From the IMG/VR virus record IMGVR_UViG_2630968543_000005: a stretch of DNA of 42,783 nt. One strand, 5' to 3'. The DNA is from a virus. Its lineage: Duplodnaviria > Heunggongvirae > Uroviricota > Caudoviricetes. The position numbers and the translations under genes were made by a program. The notes beneath the pieces were generated by a model, which saw only the letters and a program-made list of their open reading frames with translations, was not told the origin of the DNA and searched no databases. Below, in pieces: positions 3,950-37,706 of the stretch (the first letter of the stretch is position 1; each line of letters begins with the position of its first letter).

Positions 3950-4011
3950 GTTGGTTTTTCTCCACGGATTTACTGACAACCGAAGCCCTGACTGTTCCCG
4001 CAGTTGGGGCT

Positions 4012-4233
4012 TCACTGTTTTTGTAAGTCACTGTAGCTATAAAGCCACTGACCACTCATTTTTGATTTGATTGACTCTACTGAATCACGGCAAGGAATAA
4101 TTCCACCTGACATCATTCTGATCTCCGTAAATTCACCACTCCTTATCGACTCAATGCCATTAACGTTAACTAAAGATTTACCTCTACCAAGTGCATTCTC
4201 ATAGCCAATCTCATCAACCTCGATAAACTTCAT
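4012..4233 (-). CDS. Hypothetical small protein between arc and ant
   Basis: 73-aa ORF, ATG overlaps arc stop (ATGA), GAGGGGA RBS; no recognisable family. Confidence 0.35.
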
Positions 4234-22975: not shown

Positions 22976-23224
22976 ACCCGCTTTCACGAAGGTCATGTGT
23001 AGAAGGCCGCAGCGTAACTATCACTGATGAATTCAGGATAGCCAGTGGCTACGGCTCAGTTTGGGTTGTGCTGTTGCTGGGCGGCGATGACGCCTGTACG
23101 CATTTGGTGATCCGGTTCTGCTTCCGGTATTCGCTTAATTCAGCACAACGGAAAGAGCACTGGCTAACCAGGCGCGCCGACTCTTCACGATTATCGACTC
23201 AATGCTCTTACCTGTTGTGCAAAT

Positions 23225-23267
23225 AAAAAAAGCCACCGTTGCAACTTAAGAGTCACTAACGGCAGCT
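23225..23267 (-). terminator. Terminator candidate downstream of HNH-AP2 gene
   Basis: Minus strand GCUGCCGUU...AACGGUGGC stem (two G-U pairs, 17-nt loop) followed by 7 U. Confidence 0.35.
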
Positions 23268-23274
23268 TACATCT

Positions 23275-23787
23275 TTAAACGGTATGATATTTCATTCTGG
23301 CTGCCTCAAAAGCCGCAGCGGCAAGTTCGGCAGTGTCATGGTATCCAAGGTTAATACACTTTCCAGACGCATTAATTCTTGCTCTCCATTTCCCGTACTT
23401 AGCATCCCAAGACACGCCACGGTATCCAGATTTATTATTCTTCTGAATTTTCCTGTTTTGCATATTTTCGGAATGAGTGACAAGACGAAGATTTGATATC
23501 CGGTTATCTGTTCTTACCCTGTTGATGTGATCAATAAAACCATCGGGCATGGTGCCATAAACAATCAACCATGCCAGTCTGTGAGCAGGGCATGCTTTAC
23601 CATTAATCATAATCATTAAATACCCATCAGAATTTATTGATGAGCATTTCTTGAAAGCAAAACGAGAGTTCCATGTCAAAGTGGTCCTCTCTCTCCCCTG
23701 CCTCCATCTCCAGTGAAAGTCGCCTGATGATGGATTGTAATCAACAACAGAAAGCACCATTTCTGGCGTTAATTTTATTTCTTTCAT
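23275..23787 (-). CDS. HNH homing endonuclease with AP2 DNA-binding domain
   Basis: 170 aa; HRLAWLIVYG..DHINRVRTDNRISNLRLVTHSENMQN (HNH) and GYRGVSWDAKYGKWRARI..LGYHDTAELAAAAFEAA (AP2); paralog of 27543-28154. Confidence 0.7.
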   Translation of the reverse strand: MKEIKLTPEMVLSVVDYNPSSGDFHWRWRQGRERTTLTWNSRFAFKKCSSINSDGYLMIMINGKACPAHRLAWLIVYGTMPDGFIDHINRVRTDNRISNLRLVTHSENMQNRKIQKNNKSGYRGVSWDAKYGKWRARINASGKCINLGYHDTAELAAAAFEAARMKYHTV

Positions 23788-23909
23788 CGCTTTACCTTAG
23801 GGATAGAGCCTGTTCGCGTAGATATGACAGCCAAGAGCGGAGCGATGTTTCCACCACCATATCTCAGGCCCATATCACTAAGACTCTTGTTTTGATTGCA
23901 CGCGAATGC

Positions 23910-23933
23910 AAAAAAGCCCACAGGAGGTGGGCT
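23910..23933 (-). terminator. tR'-like terminator of short late leader RNA
   Basis: Minus strand AGCCCAC-CUCCU-GUGGGCU followed by 6 U, about 60 nt downstream of PR' candidate. Confidence 0.6.
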
Positions 23934-23974
23934 TGTGATGGTTGCTGAATGCAAAAGCAGCAGCATATGTGAAT

Positions 23975-24004
23975 ATTATGACTAAATGGCTAATTGCATG
24001 TCAA
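23975..24004 (-). promoter_or_regulatory. PR'-like late promoter candidate (qut region expected here)
   Basis: Minus strand TTGACA (23999-24004), 18-nt spacer, CATAAT (23975-23980) at the 3' end of Q. Confidence 0.45.
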
Positions 24005-24500
24005 GACTTTTAACAGCAACATGCTTAACTTTCTCAACACGTTTACGCATTTTGAAAGCATTTTGCATTGGTTGGTACAAAACAAATAACGACGCTTTCA
24101 GGATGTCGTCAATTTCGTTTCTACAGGTTGCCATTGAAGGTTTTCTCCATCCCTCGCCACCACGTCCACACATCTTGCGTGGCTTTGCAGTCGCGTGATA
24201 GTAGGATGCAATTGCTCGCTTAGATGAACCATGAGCGTAGTAGCTGAGGAGGATGCCAAAGGCTTTCTTGTCAATGTACATGACGGAATCGACGACCTGA
24301 GAAATCAACATTCCATCATCATCATTACACATTGGCCTTGTCATAACTCTTCCCGGCTCTACGCTCTCCATGAACTTCGCTATTACGCTGCTCATGCGCT
24401 TTTCCAGACGACCTGAATAAACCCATGCGCCCCACAGTTCAAGCCAGCCATTCAGCCACTCGTGCTGCTCTTTGGTGAGGTTTAGTTCTCTTATGCCCAT
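23982..24500 (-). CDS. Q: Late antiterminator Q
   Basis: 172 aa, position between nin region and PR'/tR'; Cys/His-containing region. Confidence 0.65.
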
Positions 24501-25162
24501 GCGCCTTCTCCCTGTACCTGAATCAATGTGAGGTTTCCGCAGAACACTGCGCCGGTATCGATATACATCTGGTTGGCAAATTTAAGTGGTTTCACTGCTG
24601 GCGTATGACCAAAGATGAACGTGTCCGCGCCTTTGATTTCTTTCACGATCCCGTCTTGTGAGTTGCTGATTCGTTCGCGGTTCCAGATTACCTGCTGATG
24701 ATCAACTGGCTTTCCAAACTCGTATTCGTCACAAGGATAATCGGCGTGGCAGATGACATATTTTTTTCCTTTACTCACCAGTTCGATGATTAACGGAAGT
24801 TCATCTGCTTTATGGGAAAGAGCTTTAGCCAGAATTTCTTTGTCGTAATCGAGATTAAAGAACCAGCCACCGCCATTAAGTAGCCAGTGATTGACATTTC
24901 CACGCTCTGATAAGCCATCAATCATCATTTGCTCATGGTTTCCACGTACAGCTCTGAACCAGGGGAATGTGATTAATTCCAGGCATTCGACGTTCTCTGC
25001 ACCGCGATCGACCAAATCGCCAACCGAGATAAGCAGGTCTTTTTGGGTGTCGAATCCTATCGTCTCCAGTTTTTTCATCAGGTTCGTGTAGCATCCGTGC
25101 AGATCGCCAACTACCCAAATATTTCGGTATTTGCTGCCATCAATTCTTTCGTAATAGCGCAT
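24491..25162 (-). CDS. ninI: Ser/Thr protein phosphatase NinI (lambda PPase-like)
   Basis: [51 protein letters not shown] metallophosphatase motifs; near-identical to lambda PPase as recalled. Confidence 0.85.
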
Positions 25163-25346
25163 CTCTTTCACTCCATCCGCGATGAACCATGAGAACGTCG
25201 TTGACGATGGCGTGCATTTTCCCGTCTTTATCATCAACGTATTTTCTGACCGTACCGCGACTACATTTCAGTCTGCGTGCTACTTCTGTCTGGTTTCCGT
25301 ATGCTTCAACAAGCATGTCTGGAATGGTTTTTACTGAGAACGTCAT
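25140..25346 (-). CDS. ninH: NinH
   Basis: 68 aa, [37 protein letters not shown].. matches lambda NinH. Confidence 0.8.
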
Positions 25347-25954
25347 GCGGCCTCACTTCTGCTATTTCGCAGGTCTTTGAGTTTCTGCTGATACTCCGCC
25401 TTGATGGCCCTGCACTCTTCGACAGTCCAGCGATGGCGGTTATGGTTTGATTCGATTTCGTCTACTGCTTCCTGCCCGATGCGGATAATCAGTTCGACGC
25501 GATACGGAACGAGATTTCCGCTTTTGTGCTGGTTGCACACCACGCATTGCTTGTGAATATTGCGTTCATCAAATCGGAGTTGAGGTGCCGCAGCAGTTGT
25601 CCGGTAATGGCCGGCATCCCACTGAGCAGACGTGAGCGTTCCGCACGAGATACATGGTAAGTCGCGGTCTCTTTCTCTGATGAAGGCGTTTACGGCTTGT
25701 TGGGCTTGTTTAATCCAGTAACTGCGGGGCTTTAAGGCGAGTTTTCGAATCTTCAGTTTATCTTTCTGTTTCTGCTCCTCTCGTCGTCGTTTCTTCTCTG
25801 CTGCTTTTTCCGCTTTTTCGCGTTCTTTACTTCGTCGTTCGAGTGCTATCTTGGTTCCACACTCTGGAGAGCACCACCACTGATTAGCGAATGCAGGGTG
25901 AAACCATTCCCGACATTCATCGTTTTTACATCGTCTTCGCGCTGGTTTAGCCAT
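25343..25954 (-). CDS. ninG: NinG (Rap/recombination-associated endonuclease family)
   Basis: 203 aa, Cys-rich N-terminus [18 protein letters not shown].., lambda NinG-like. Confidence 0.8.
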
Positions 25955-26123
25955 CGTCTTCTTCCTCGTACATTGAGCTATTCGGATCGCTCATCAGTTC
26001 TGCGCAGCAATCGGAGCACACGTGAACTTCCAGCACATGCAGCTTCTGACCGCAGTTAGCGCACGTTAAAGCTCGCTCGACGCTTTCTTTCTGGTATTGA
26101 AGGGATTGGGATGGGCTAAGCAT
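25947..26123 (-). CDS. ninF: NinF
   Basis: 58 aa, [36 protein letters not shown]..; below the 60-aa ORF track cutoff; overlaps ninG start. Confidence 0.7.
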
Positions 26124-26488
26124 TATTGGATTCTCTGCATCATGAGAAAGACAATCATGGCGGCGCGGAGGGGATTTTCATGTATAGCTCGCTTAGATTT
26201 ACAGTAGGCCACACCGCGTGCACCCCACTCGTCTTCATCGAGATTGATAATGCTAATCCTGTATTTTTCAATAATCGGCCATGCGTCTGCTGGGTTTGCG
26301 CATGGGTTAAAGGAACCGCGCTCAACTTCTACTTCAACTGCGTCTCCGTTTACAATGTCTCCCTCAAATGAGACAAACACCATATCGCCATTCTCACCTT
26401 CTTTGTAATCCGGTGATCCGTTATGAATGGCTTCGAATACCGCCACGTTAATTTCAAAATCACTTAACTGTGAATAATCCATTGTCAT
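26123..26488 (-). CDS. Nin-region hypothetical protein (NinX/DUF2591-like)
   Basis: 121 aa, [21 protein letters not shown].., position in nin region. Confidence 0.45.
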
Positions 26489-26661
26489 TTCCTCGCACGT
26501 TCTCTAAGCCACCGGATATCCCACAGGTGAGCCGTGTAGTTGAAGGTTTTTACGTCAGATTCTTTTGGGATTGGCTTGCGTTTATTTCTGGAGCGTTTCG
26601 TTGGAAGGTATTTGCAGTTTTCGCAGATGATGTCGGTGATACTTCGTCGCTGTCGTCTCAT
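26485..26661 (-). CDS. ninE: NinE
   Basis: Trimmed to ATG 26661; [52 protein letters not shown] matches lambda NinE. Confidence 0.75.
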
Positions 26662-27068
26662 TCGTACCTCCTGTCGGTAAATCTGACACCCTGACCAATA
26701 GCCCATGCTGTCGTGTACTCGATCAGACTTGCCATGCGCTTCACGCTCATCTGCGCACTGCTTTCGCGAATGTTGACGTATTCGCCTTCAAGGCCGGGCA
26801 AAACATCAGCTTCCTGCTTTGTTGCCACTGCATGACCGCTAATCAACAAAACCTTCCATTGTTCTGGTTTTAACCACTTATCGCACCATTGAACCTGACG
26901 TGCGATATCCGCCAGCATCGCGTGAAATTTTGCGTTCTGGTCAAGGTTGCGCTTGTAGTCAGTAATGCGGATGGTGACTGGCTTGTCTTTATCGAGTGGT
27001 GTTGCGAGGATGGCATTTATTGCAGCTTGCTGTTGTTGCTTAGTTCGGAGGAAGATTGTTTGCTTCAT
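26658..27068 (-). CDS. ninB: NinB-like recombination protein
   Basis: Trimmed to ATG 27068 with GAGGTGA RBS; ~136 aa; ..[22 protein letters not shown].. NinB family pattern. Confidence 0.6.
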
Positions 27069-27100
27069 TGTCACCTCAACTAACAAAACGCCACGCCATT

Positions 27101-27256
27101 TTATAGGCTCCATCCATCCCATTTTCTCTCACCAAAAATATGCCTGTGCCATTCTTCCCGCTGCCGTCTCCATAGTTCCATCATGTCTGGCTGGTTCTTT
27201 TCTCGCATTTTTCGAATCTGCTCAAGGATGAACTCTATTTGCTGCTGATTTGTCAT
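27101..27256 (-). CDS. Hypothetical small protein
   Basis: 51-aa ORF with AAGGAG RBS, below ORF track cutoff. Confidence 0.3.
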   Translation of the reverse strand: MTNQQQIEFILEQIRKMREKNQPDMMELWRRQREEWHRHIFGERKWDGWSL

Positions 27257-27266
27257 GCTCACTCCT

Positions 27267-27482
27267 TTACTTTAAATCCAGACTCCGAATAATTCTGTTG
27301 CGCTGAAACTCATTGTTGAGTTTGGACAACCGTCGAAGAACACGGTCACGCGGATAGCGTCGTGCGGCAGGTGAATGCTCATACAACTCATCAAGCGGCA
27401 AACTGGACGATGAACGATACCGATACCAACGCGCCAACTCTTCACGAAAATTAGCCCTGACAAGCTCAGCTATCGTACTCAT
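27267..27482 (-). CDS. Hypothetical protein
   Basis: 71-aa Arg-rich ORF. Confidence 0.4.
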   Translation of the reverse strand: MSTIAELVRANFREELARWYRYRSSSSLPLDELYEHSPAARRYPRDRVLRRLSKLNNEFQRNRIIRSLDLK

Positions 27483-27519
27483 TTCTTAAATCCTCCAATT
27501 ACTCTCCCCCAAATAAAAA

Positions 27520-27554
27520 GGCCTGCGATTACCAGCAGGCCTTTATCTTTTTTT
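27520..27554. terminator. Bidirectional terminator (tR2-like) after HNH-AP2 gene
   Basis: GGCCTGC-GATTACCA-GCAGGCC hairpin flanked by A-run and T-run. Confidence 0.55.
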
Positions 27555-28154
27555 AACACGCTTTCGAGTCCTTTTAGATTTTTCCTTAAGATATTCCGCA
27601 AGTTTATCCTCATCATTATTAAATTGAGATAAAAGCTCATGCTCGCAATTAAGTGCTTTACTCGCATAAGTTCCATATAGTTTCTTTCTTGCTAGTGCTG
27701 CTATGAATGCTGCATCTTCTTTGCTATCGAAATACCCTAACGATATTGTCTTATTTTTATAACCAACATAAGACTTCCACCTGCCAGTTGTCTTATCCCA
27801 AGACACTCCAATCGCACCGGATGTGTTTAACCTATTCCCTACAATGTTTCTTGCATTCTGCTCCTCTGTTGCCAGTCTTAGATTTGAAATCCTATTGTCA
27901 AGTCTGTTCCCATTTACATGATCAATAAACTTAGGAGGCCATTTTTTGTATACATAGAACCAAGCAAGTCTATGCGCATAATACAAAACATTATTTATGC
28001 TAATGCATATATAACCACCACTAACACCTCCAGCAATACTACCTTTTACTCTTACTACTGAATTTGTTTTTAGCCATTTAAATATTCCTGTTTCTGAGTC
28101 ATATGATAATGTTGACAGAAGCTCATCGTGATCAATTAGTTTTTTTATTCGCAT
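27543..28154 (-). CDS. HNH homing endonuclease with AP2 domain (paralog of 23275-23787)
   Basis: 203 aa; HRLAWFYVYKKWPPKFIDHVNGNRLDNRISNLRLATEEQN and GVSWDKTTGRWKSYV..LGYFDSKEDAAFIAALA. Confidence 0.7.
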   Translation of the reverse strand: MRIKKLIDHDELLSTLSYDSETGIFKWLKTNSVVRVKGSIAGGVSGGYICISINNVLYYAHRLAWFYVYKKWPPKFIDHVNGNRLDNRISNLRLATEEQNARNIVGNRLNTSGAIGVSWDKTTGRWKSYVGYKNKTISLGYFDSKEDAAFIAALARKKLYGTYASKALNCEHELLSQFNNDEDKLAEYLKEKSKRTRKRVKKR

Positions 28155-28215
28155 AAAGAATATACTTAATAATATATACAGTAAGAACCATTAGTAACGA
28201 TAACTGGATTTGCCC

Positions 28216-29121
28216 CTATATTTCCAGACACCTGTTATCACTTAACCCATTACTGGCTTGCTGCCGTAGATATTCCCGTGGCGAGCGATAACCCAGTGCA
28301 CTATGCGGATGCCATTCGTTATAATGCTCGAACGCCTCTGCAAGGTTCTTTGCTGCCGTTAACCCGTCTGGTTTGGGCATGACACTGATGTAGTCACGCT
28401 TTATCGTTTTCACGAAGCTCTCTGCTATGCCGTTACTCTCCGGACTCCGCACCGCCGTGCTCTTCGGTTCAAGCCCCAACATCCGGGCAAACTGCCGTGT
28501 TTCATTAGCCCGGTAGCATGAACCATTATCCGTCAGCCACTCTACTGGAGACGCCGGAAGCTCGTTGCCGAAGCGGCGTTCCACCGCTCCCAGCATGACG
28601 TCCTGTACTGTTTCACTGTTGAAGCCGCCCGTAGTGACCGCCCAGTGCAGTGCCTCACGGTCACAGCAGTCCAGCGCGAACGTGACTCGCAGTTTTTCTC
28701 CGTTATCACAGCGGAACTCGAACCCGTCAGAGCACCATCGCTGATTACTTTCTTTCACAGCCACTCTGCCTGTATGTGCCCGTTTCGATGGCGGTACAGC
28801 AGGTTTTCGCTCAAGCAACAGCGCATTCTGGCGCATGATCCGGTAAACACGTTTGGCATTGATCGCAGGCATACCATCAAGTTCTGCCTGTCTGCGAAGC
28901 AGCGCCCATACCCGACGATAACCATACGTGGGCAGCTCTCCGATAACATGGTGTATACGGAGAAGCACATCCGTATCATCAGTGTGACGACTGCGGCGGC
29001 CATCCATCCAGTCATCGGTTCGTCTGAGAATGACGTGCAACTGCGCACGCGACACCCGGAGACAACGGCTGACTAAGCTTACTCCCCATCCCCGGGCAAT
29101 AAGGGCGCGTGCGCTATCCAC
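28216..29121 (-). CDS. insD: IS2 transposase OrfB (InsD)
   Basis: 301 aa, DDE integrase core, matches IS2 InsD. Confidence 0.9.
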
Positions 29122-29444
29122 TTTTTTGCCCGTCCATATTCAACGGCTTCTTTGAGGAGTTCATTTTCCATCGTTTTCTTGCCGAGCAGGCGCTGGAGTT
29201 CTTTAATCTGCTTCATGGCGGCAGCAAGTTCAGAGGCAGGAACAACCTGTTCTCCGGCGGCGACAGCAGTAAGACTTCCTTCCTGGTATTGCTTACGCCA
29301 GAGAAATAACTGGCTGGCTGCTACACCATGTTGCCGGGCAACGAGGGAGACCGTCATCCCTGGTTCAAAGCTCTGCTGAACAATTGCGATCTTTTCCTGT
29401 GTGGTACGCCGTCTGCGTTTCTCCGGTCCTAAGACATCAATCAT
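29079..29444 (-). CDS. insC: IS2 transposase OrfA (InsC)
   Basis: Trimmed to ATG 29444; [47 protein letters not shown]..; overlaps insD for -1 frameshift. Confidence 0.85.
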
Positions 29445-29572
29445 CTGCTCTCCAATGACTAGTCTAAAAACTAGTATTAAGACTATCACTTAAATAAGTG
29501 ATATTGGTTGTCTGGTGATTCAGGGGGCCAGTCTAATAACCCTGCTATCAGCTCAGTGATGTAGATGGCCAT

Positions 29573-36735: not shown

Positions 36736-37203
36736 ATGTCTCACTTGGACGGAATTATTAAAAGATTCGAGTCCAGCTACAAAGTTAATGAAACAACAGG
36801 ATGCTGGGAGTCTACCTATTCAAAAAACAAAGGAGGATACACAAAATTTGTAGCCTTTGGCGTAACAATGCTTTCTCATCGGGTTGCTTTTGAGCTTTAT
36901 CACTCCCCCATTCCATCTGGGAAGATGGTTTGCCACAAATGCGATAACCCATGCTGCGTTAATCCTGAACATCTCTTTTTAGGTAGCGCGCAAGAAAACA
37001 TGGACGACAAGATAGCAAAAGGAAGGCATCGTGGAGCCAAGAAAGGTCATGCTCATCATGGTGCAAAATTAACAGAGTGGCAGGTTATAGAAATTAGGAA
37101 AAGACTCTCTGAAAAAGAGAGTCAGTACAAGATAGCAAAAGACATGGGTGTATCTCAATCAATTATAAGCAACATAAAAACTGGCAAGAGGTGGAGCAAA
37201 TGA
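36736..37203 (+). CDS. HNH endonuclease
   Basis: 155 aa; [30 protein letters not shown] motif; inserted between recombinase and ssb. Confidence 0.7.
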
Positions 37204-37706
37204 GTTCTCGCGGGATAAATAAGGTGATTATCCTTGGTCGGGTAGGACAAGACCCGGAAGTTCGATACTCACCATCAGGAACAGCGTTCGCTAACCTGAC
37301 AATAGCAACGTCAGAACAATGGCGAGATAAAAATACTGGCGAGCAAAAGGAATTGACTGAATGGCATCGTGTTGCTGTATCCGGGAAACTGGCTGAGGTC
37401 GTGGGGCAGTATGTGAAAAAAGGTGATCAGATTTATTTCGAGGGAATGCTGAGAACCAGAAAGTGGAAAGACCAGTCAGGGCAAGACCGTTACACAACCG
37501 AGGTTCATGTCGGAATTAATGGCGTGATGCAAATGCTTGGCGGCATTGGCGACAGCAAACAACAAGCAGCCAGCAGGCAATCACAGAAGCCACAGCAGCA
37601 ATCATCACCAGCACAACACAACGAACCTCCGATGGATTTTGACGACGATATACCCTTTGCGCCAGTAACTCTCCCCTTCCCTCGTCACGCTATTCACGCA
37701 ATTTAA
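37200..37706 (+). CDS. ssb: Single-stranded DNA-binding protein
   Basis: [41 protein letters not shown].. OB-fold and acidic C-terminal tail [11 protein letters not shown] 37200 overlaps HNH stop. Confidence 0.85.

Follow-up and report, generated by a model that had tools for sequence, protein, structure and literature searches.

Genes encoding HNH nucleases are found at three separate places in the window, the whole stretch of 42,783 nucleotides (nt) analysed here (IMG/VR record IMGVR_UViG_2630968543_000005), which is a P22-like (Lederbergvirus-type) lambdoid prophage of E. coli with its early-right and late genes on the minus strand. Along that strand, the primase/helicase gene (31453-29573) is followed by an IS2 element (29535-28205), HNH#2 (28154-27543), the nin region (ninB-like, NinG, NinH and phosphatase genes), Q (24500-23982), HNH#1 (23787-23275) and finally the holin, endolysin and spanin genes. 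The three HNH genes, which are the subject of this analysis and probably represent three independent free-standing cassettes of the homing-endonuclease type, are as follows.

23275-23787, minus strand: HNH#1 gene, 170 amino acids (aa), HNH_3 and AP2 domains.
27543-28154, minus strand: HNH#2 gene, 203 aa, HNH_3 and AP2 domains.
36736-37203, plus strand: HNH#3 gene, 155 aa, HNH_3 domain and a weak helix-turn-helix (HTH).

A sequence-only reading had taken the first two open reading frames (ORFs) to be diverged HNH-AP2 paralogues, each inserted at a separate site, and had listed the third as a further HNH gene. Pfam bears out the domain assignments, with HNH_3 E-values of 3.8e-18 for HNH#1, 8.1e-16 for HNH#2 and 1.1e-13 for HNH#3, all over the 24.8-bit cut-off, and with AP2 matches at E=1.6e-8 and 35.1 bits in HNH#1 (cut-off 33.3) and at E=1e-7 and 32.6 bits, slightly under that cut-off, in HNH#2. 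HNH#3, which is indeed present, has weak matches to zf-His_Me_endon and HTH_38 and none to AP2. The paralogy survived alignment, as HNH#1 and HNH#2 share 40% identity over 161 residues (BLASTP, E=5e-33), and the similarity of HNH#3 to both is remote (24% identity, E about 3e-4). Judged by sequence, HNH#1 and HNH#2 are true paralogues of the same architecture and members of the phage HNH-AP2 family, relatives of which are found by tblastn in 3,222 phage records and are mostly annotated as HNH or homing endonuclease.

The fold and the active-site residues of these proteins agree with a nuclease function. An AlphaFold2 model of HNH#1, the sole protein modelled, has a predicted local distance difference test score of 88.8, and its best PDB match by Foldseek is I-HmuI (1u3e; E=7.5e-4, probability 1.0, 107 columns, root-mean-square deviation (rmsd) 3.4), residues D74, H75, N87 and N96 of which align with D86, H87, N99 and N108 of HNH#1. 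These I-HmuI positions are reportedly (Shen et al. 2004) catalytic, metal-binding and structural residues. The same four are carried by HNH#2 in the pairwise alignment, and in an alignment of 64 homologues no substitution occurs at D86, H87 or N99, with N108 kept in at least 90%. The C-terminal domain of the HNH#1 model superposes on the plant AP2/ERF domains of AtERF1 and TEM1 with an rmsd of 1.1-1.8 A, and the AP2 domain of WRI1 (7wq5) is matched in phmmer by the two HNH-AP2 proteins at E=2e-6 and 1.5e-3. The ratio of nonsynonymous to synonymous substitution rates (dN/dS) of HNH#1 is about 0.3 against a 96% relative, and comparison with orthologues of 61-70% identity gives a nonsynonymous divergence (pN) of 0.19-0.29 with the synonymous one (pS) saturated at about 0.8, so that the gene, on these substitution patterns, is under purifying selection. 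The GC content of the ORFs is 0.41 for HNH#1, 0.35 for HNH#2 and 0.41 for HNH#3, and that of the flanks is 0.46-0.51 (0.46-0.49 around HNH#1).

The distribution of the cassettes was determined in 5,426 complete E. coli genomes, in which each is present or absent at one exact position, and most related phages are uninterrupted at that nucleotide. Cassette 1 occupies its site in 38 genomes and the uninterrupted type-B site occurs in 360; cassette 2 is found in 125 genomes and its uninterrupted 66-nt site in 1,899, a single genome having as many as 9 copies; cassette 3 is found in 33, and its exact empty junction in roughly 120, a figure estimated from evenly spaced rows. The genes are thus not universal at their junctions, in keeping with the optional insertions that the sequence-only reading had proposed. 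In the carrier genomes the ORFs are full length at 98% identity or more, and the cassettes are at least 98-99% identical across differing flanking backgrounds. Moreover, they assort independently on IMG/VR contigs, where 4 of the 39 contigs with HNH#1 also have HNH#2 and 3 have HNH#3. The allele of the carrier is in every case altered at the presumed target, sites 1 and 2 being split by the insertion and site 3 adjoining a recoded ssb gene.

Cassette 1, the limits of which were set by alignment with HK629 (filled) and HF4s and SPN9CC (empty), lies in the late leader of a Q21-type operon, with the following features.

23278-23975, minus strand: cassette 1, 698 bp, comprising leader A, terminator A, a spacer and HNH#1; missing from HNH-less type-B alleles.
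23982-24500, minus strand: Q antiterminator of the Q21 type (phmmer against PDB chains 6jnx/6p18 (Q21), E about 1e-92, 162 aa).
23975-24004, minus strand: late promoter pR', TTGACA-18-CATAAT, 11 of 12 consensus matches; overlaps the 3' end of Q and is kept in filled and empty alleles.
23962-23967, minus strand: TATGCT, a -10-like hexamer of leader A set 7 nt behind the -10 hexamer of pR'; candidate for a sigma-dependent pause element.
23906-23934, minus strand: terminator A, AAGCCCACCTCCTGTGGGCTT and a T-run, -13.7 kcal/mol; within the inserted segment, upstream of HNH#1.
23223-23269, minus strand: native leader B (TAAGCT) and tR' hairpin with T-run, -20.2 kcal/mol; directly after the HNH#1 stop codon.

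In empty alleles (HF4s, SPN9CC and many P22/Sf6-type phages), the pR' -10 hexamer CATAAT is directly joined to TAGAGGGTAAGCTGCCGTT...AACGGTGGCTTTTTT, which places the insertion point immediately after CATAAT and the native hairpin after the HNH#1 stop codon. Leader B and the tR' hairpin are identical in the HNH-less HF4s and SPN9CC, and the native TAAGCT of empty alleles stands at the same 7-nt spacing as the TATGCT of the cassette. The hairpin is labelled as a terminator in the records of HK75, L and Sf6 and as 'boundary sequence bsq4' in that of CUS-3 (CP000711 25816-25879); it also occurs, without an adjoining Q21-type pR', in about 400 further E. coli genomes including O157:H7, where just the hairpin half of the query was matched. 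The control region has the predicted layout of the Q21 type, with a Q21-family Q, repeats in the promoter spacer, a -10-like element and two terminators. The Q21 binding element is located between -35 and -10, and the only downstream requirement is a -10-like pause element in the right position (PMC6606751). As TATGCT keeps the native spacing, Q would still be able to load at the leader of cassette 1, and terminator A may keep HNH#1 silent until Q is present. The spacer contains the direct repeats TTAGCCAT and TTAGTCAT, 8 bp apart, a geometry that fits Q21 binding subsites; the repeats themselves are unlike the TGAGCA quoted for phage 21, despite a Q nearly identical to Q21.

The cassette is annotated as 'HNH endonuclease' (HK629_061) in HK629, where its identity is 99.9%, and in E. 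coli it is found as a unit at 99% identity or more in 38 of the 40 matching genomes. At IMG/VR loci it is always accompanied by a Q21-type Q gene, in at least 4 upstream and at least 5 downstream contexts. HNH#1 orthologues of 61-70% identity in E. coli, Pantoea and a metagenome contig lie directly after the Q gene behind a promoter, and are preceded by a terminator of the same kind as terminator A (AAGCCCAC...GTGGGCTT TTTTGCATT); the retention of both site and terminator type by diverged orthologues indicates an old association of HNH#1 with the site, and that terminator and HNH gene are an old unit. In strain WCHEC115106 (L011 1501-1600), leader A and terminator A are fused, with no HNH gene, to the common sequence upstream of the holin gene, which looks like a precise loss of the HNH gene by deletion between two GGCTTTTTT runs and is the sole such case in the 5,426 genomes. 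The idea that leader A and terminator A were an independent native allele later invaded by the HNH gene was rejected, because the HNH-less form is found in only this strain, as an apparent deletion. The PhiR12 phages and strain NCTC9112 retain just the first 256 nt of the cassette.

Some further observations concern the same region. A 60-aa ORF (23784-23966, minus strand) runs through leader A and terminator A. It begins no more than a few bases from the point where pR' transcription is expected to start, and its stop codon overlaps the HNH#1 start codon (ATGA); in an orthologue of 70% identity (L088, P0010), the 3' portion of this ORF forms an in-frame fusion with the HNH gene. It could be a coupling ORF or a product of chance. 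In some E. coli prophages (L083, L085; 1276-1797 and 2501-3013), two HNH_3-AP2 genes bracket Q, one of them overlapping the Q start and the other following pR'. In addition, the site of cassette 1 is taken by tRNA genes in SPN9CC- and BTP1-type phages; the window has none.

Cassette 2 lies at a tR2-type terminator between the replication genes and the nin region, and its surroundings comprise the following features.

27540-28204, minus strand: cassette 2, 665 bp without IS2, at the 5' foot of the tR2-type hairpin.
27508-27544, minus strand: resident tR2-type terminator, AAAGGCCTGC...GCAGGCCTTT and a T-run; also the 3' half of a split ninA-like micro-ORF.
29536-29572, minus strand: 5' part of the ninA-like micro-ORF, MAIYITELIAGL..., split first by cassette 2 and then by IS2.
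28205-29535, minus strand: IS2, 1331 bp, 100% match to IS2 InsC/InsD records.

The junctions, defined against the HNH-less vB_EcoP-720R6 and the filled HK022 and WGPS6, read ...CTAATA(A/G)CAGG on the left and CCTGCTGG / CCTGCTGGTAATCGCAGGCCTTTTTATTT on the right. The uninterrupted 66-nt site is the ren-ninB sequence of lambda, and it holds the single hairpin of that interval that is followed by a T-run, which matches lambda 40,59x-40,63x exactly. As lambda tR2 has been placed after ren (PMC3640518), the terminator behind HNH#2 is regarded as the resident equivalent of tR2. At IMG/VR loci the junction falls on the identical nucleotide behind at least 6 different upstream genes, and all 22 retrievable filled junctions have ATAGCAGG, where lambda and 720R6 have ATAACAGG. 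HNH#2 is the same gene as HK022 gp57 and as the 'HNH endonuclease' of the Stx2 phages WGPS6 (gp31), PA28 and 1717, at 98-99% identity, and adjoins the replication genes in many Stx2 phages. Between 62% and 98% identity the protein is virtually without relatives, which fits a recent spread, and the lone 62% match is a chimera. This chimeric gene (L090 2420-3016, on a contig of Logan SRR10380363) has a 5' part and leader identical to cassette 2 and a 3' part from a different HNH gene that abuts rusA, which suggests recombination between paralogous HNH genes with deletion of the intervening nin genes.

The micro-ORF at this junction is present but unannotated in lambda (MTIYITELITGLLVIAGLFIWGRGKS; NC_001416 40567-40647, L008 368-448), where it overlaps the tR2 hairpin and is coupled by ATGA overlaps at both ends; its CUS-3 homologue is annotated as ninA. 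Its pieces in the window lie at 29572-29536 with 28204-28132 and at 27539-27479, with TAAATG upstream and an ATGA overlap downstream. Cassette 2 breaks the ORF after codon 11 and substitutes a new hydrophobic C-terminal tail, giving MAIYITELIAGLSLLMVLTVYIIKYILYANKKTN. The IS2 is complete, is flanked by a GTTAT target duplication (29536-29540 and 28200-28204) 5 bp inside the cassette and inside the micro-ORF, and separates the primase/helicase stop codon from HNH#2; it may exert polar effects on HNH#2, the nin genes and Q. A consensus scan of the coding strand for cassette-borne promoters passed nothing besides pR'; a weak TTACTA-17-TATTAT, the -35 hexamer of which has just 3 of 6 consensus matches, precedes HNH#2.

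These junctions amend the sequence-only reading in several respects. It had placed HNH#1 downstream of Q, pR' and tR', and the gene in fact lies between the pR' -10 hexamer and the native tR', the element that had been called tR' (23934-23914) being terminator A of the inserted segment. A hairpin does follow each HNH-AP2 gene, but not as a terminator of its own, since both hairpins are unchanged in HNH-less alleles and represent tR' and a tR2-type terminator. HNH#2 was assigned to the junction of replication genes and nin region, from the first of which it is now separated in this prophage by IS2 with its GTTAT duplication, an element that the sequence-only reading had not mentioned.

Cassette 3 is a 464-bp insertion carrying HNH#3 (36736-37203, plus strand) between an erf/Rad52-like gene and ssb, and the start of ssb next to it is altered.

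37200-37223, plus strand: recoded 5' end of ssb, codons 2-5 reading ATGAGTTCTCGCGGG... against ATGGCAAGCAGAGGC... in empty alleles.

In the empty alleles of HK75, mEp235, mEpX2 and g341c, the erf/Rad52-like gene and ssb are joined as ...GGCGGCATAAATGGCAAGCAGAGGCGTAAATAAGG, and in filled ones the HNH#3 stop codon overlaps the ssb start (ATGA). Within the recoded stretch, 10 of 21 nt are changed, with identical flanks on both sides. The version ATGAGTTCTCGCGG is present in all 30 filled HNH#3 loci examined, including orthologues of 74% identity in diverged ssb backgrounds, and in 0 of 3 empty alleles. The opening 14 nt of ssb accompany HNH#3 even where the rest of ssb has diverged, which is the sole indirect hint of over-transmission with co-conversion of flanking markers. 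A multi-nucleotide and largely synonymous recoding of this kind is the pattern expected of a homing target made resistant. In the collection searched, no isolated phage carries cassette 3, and its carriers are prophages, such as that of E. coli E2348/69.

Taken as homing-endonuclease-type cassettes, which is the probable interpretation, the three elements would act through a common mechanism. HNH#1 and HNH#2 consist of an N-terminal I-HmuI-like nuclease region with a beta-beta-alpha-metal core followed by an AP2 DNA-binding domain, and HNH#3 combines HNH_3 with another kind of C-terminal DNA-binding region. In lytic growth or on co-infection, each enzyme would nick or cut an uninterrupted allele, borne by a related phage or a co-resident prophage, close to the insertion point, and recombinational repair from the HNH-bearing genome would copy the cassette into the cut allele. 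The carrier would be protected by its split site in the case of cassettes 1 and 2, and by the recoded adjacent ssb codons in that of cassette 3. The cassettes appear to be placed so that the operons of the host phage stay unbroken. Cassette 1 leaves the Q-binding repeats intact, provides a -10-like pause hexamer at native spacing and brings its own terminator ahead of the HNH gene, from which it is proposed that HNH#1 is made only by Q-modified polymerase, i.e., late. Cassette 2, at the foot of the tR2-type terminator, is proposed to have HNH#2 transcribed with the replication genes and swaps the hydrophobic tail of the split ninA-like ORF for its own, and cassette 3 is stop/start-coupled to ssb. 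IS2 entered cassette 2 later.

Several points weigh against this interpretation. Homing itself is deduced here from sequence comparison, and cleavage, the cleavage site and super-Mendelian inheritance are predicted for the three enzymes; no paper on them turned up in a literature search directed at HNH in HK629. Both HNH-AP2 cassettes sit in short conserved linkers between lambdoid modules, one of which carries the 'boundary sequence' label in CUS-3, and ordinary homologous recombination in such linkers could give the same patchy distribution without homing. The HNH#1 orthologues of 61-70% identity at the same place fit a long-standing resident late gene as well as they fit a conserved target specificity. 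In a lysogen, the operons of all three genes should be silent, and IS2 may affect HNH#2 expression in this prophage. Furthermore, no statistically significant motif common to the three empty sites was found in a shuffling test, and the paralogy is thus unsupported by a shared recognition sequence. A TAATWASAGG...GCTG likeness between sites 1 and 2 was discarded because 17,878 of 20,000 shuffles scored equally well, and a likeness between sites 2 and 3, GA[GA]CTAA(T)AACAGGC, is marginal (220 of 5,000 shuffles).

The most serious rival, considered unlikely on balance, is that these are accessory, 'moron'-like nuclease genes which move by ordinary homologous recombination at linkers only. They would be retained for their benefit to the phage and not through self-copying; one such benefit would be cleavage of the DNA of HNH-less lambdoid competitors or of co-resident prophages (marker exclusion). 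Such a view accords with the insertion points being the most conserved short sequences of the region, as the 1,899 genomes with the 66-nt site (up to 9 copies each) and the boundary annotation of the tR' hairpin illustrate, and with an HNH#1 lineage that is under purifying selection, stable at the Q/late-leader position across genera and always found with a Q21-type Q gene. It explains poorly why a multi-nucleotide recoding of ssb codons 2-5 should be tied to HNH#3, and it leaves unexplained the near-identical cassette 2 behind at least 6 unrelated upstream genes. In addition, exclusion and homing are both outcomes of one cleavage, which makes the difference one of emphasis more than of mechanism.

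A loss of nuclease function is less probable by far. The proteins could be domesticated AP2 or HTH DNA binders, such as regulators at the adjoining terminators, or decaying remnants, and precedents are provided by plant transcription factors and phage CasPR anti-CRISPRs, in which an AP2 domain derived from homing endonucleases is a pure DNA binder; that both HNH-AP2 genes adjoin regulatory terminators agrees with this. It is rendered improbable by the four catalytic and structural HNH residues, which both proteins retain and which the family conserves, by full-length ORFs at 98% identity or more in 38, 125 and 33 genomes and by a dN/dS below 1. Phage HNH genes are sometimes terminase cofactors, and a packaging-associated role of the HK97 gp74 type, assisting the terminase, has also to be considered. 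It is scarcely credible here: none of the three genes is near the terminase genes, their Pfam HNH_3 domains are combined with AP2 or HTH domains, which is not the short gp74-type HNH, and most close relatives are without them, so they are not essential for packaging. Position and the dispensability evident from the presence/absence data effectively rule this role out.

Several known systems are close to these cassettes. HNH-AP2 is an established homing-endonuclease family, according to the citation of Magnani et al. 2004 in PMC10448857, and the enzymes of phages, cyanobacteria and ciliates attributed there to Magnani, Sjolander & Hake (2004) have the same N-terminal HNH and C-terminal AP2. The ICP1-like 'IPA-HNH' genes (Barth et al. 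2023, PMC10448857) are likewise free-standing, sporadic and located at conserved phage module boundaries; however, the HNH domains of ICP1 do not match canonical Pfam HNH_3 strongly, as those of HNH#1 and HNH#2 do, and they lie near structural or replication genes, whereas the present hosts are temperate lambdoid phages and the sites are the terminators tR' and tR2. I-HmuI of Bacillus phage SPO1 (PDB 1U3E), the best structural match over residues about 1-113, shares the D-H...N...N residues, but it is encoded in a group I intron, its C-terminal domain is a helix-turn-helix in place of AP2, and identity is only about 20%. This closest solved relative is a strand-specific nickase, and nicking by the proteins of the window is assumed by analogy. 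The free-standing T4-type Seg/Mob and I-TevIII-like HNH enzymes are also encoded in intergenic cassettes that do not disrupt expression; they have their target in a neighbouring conserved gene where silent polymorphisms protect the carrier, the same pattern as in HNH#3 and ssb. They have other DNA-binding domains, and cleavage and marker exclusion have been demonstrated for them, whereas cleavage by the enzymes of the window is predicted. Essentially identical genes at identical positions are found in HK629, HK022 and Stx2 phages, the records of which name the genes and leave junctions and empty alleles undescribed.

What is already known is the family, together with the genes deposited and named in HK629, HK022 and the Stx phages, and in other respects these are ordinary selfish nuclease cassettes of a known family. 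What is new comprises the exact junctions, the identification of the flanking terminators with tR' and tR2, the way in which cassette 1 duplicates pause element and terminator, the interruption of the ninA-like ORF and the recoding of ssb. A broader and doubtful proposition is that the HNH-AP2 enzymes cut the conserved inter-module linkers (the tR2 hairpin with ninA, and the tR' 'boundary sequence') and, by breaking DNA right at the borders of modules, are a cause of lambdoid mosaicism in addition to being its passengers. If true, gene conversion would be driven among the several lambdoid prophages carried by many E. coli strains, and an idea proposed for ICP1 and T4-like phages (PMC10448857) would be extended to temperate coliphages. 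If the enzymes are active, lambda-type phages, the textbook case of modular evolution, would possess nucleases directed at the same linkers through which modules are exchanged, including terminators of N- and Q-dependent control, which would offer a testable molecular reason for the positions of mosaic joints and would matter for recombination between Stx and other prophages that reside together. Filled and empty alleles are now defined exactly for three sites, with lambda, Sf6/HF4s and HK75 as natural empty targets and HK022 (cassette 2) and HK629 (cassette 1) as natural donors, and homing is thus testable with standard phages.

Elsewhere in the window, a tblastn search for further HNH paralogues found no fourth HNH_3 gene. 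An Rfam scan gave no match at either HNH-AP2 site, and its sole match was the sar antisense RNA (RF00262, 87.7 bits) at 3950-4016 on the plus strand, which marks the P22-type immI (ant) region.

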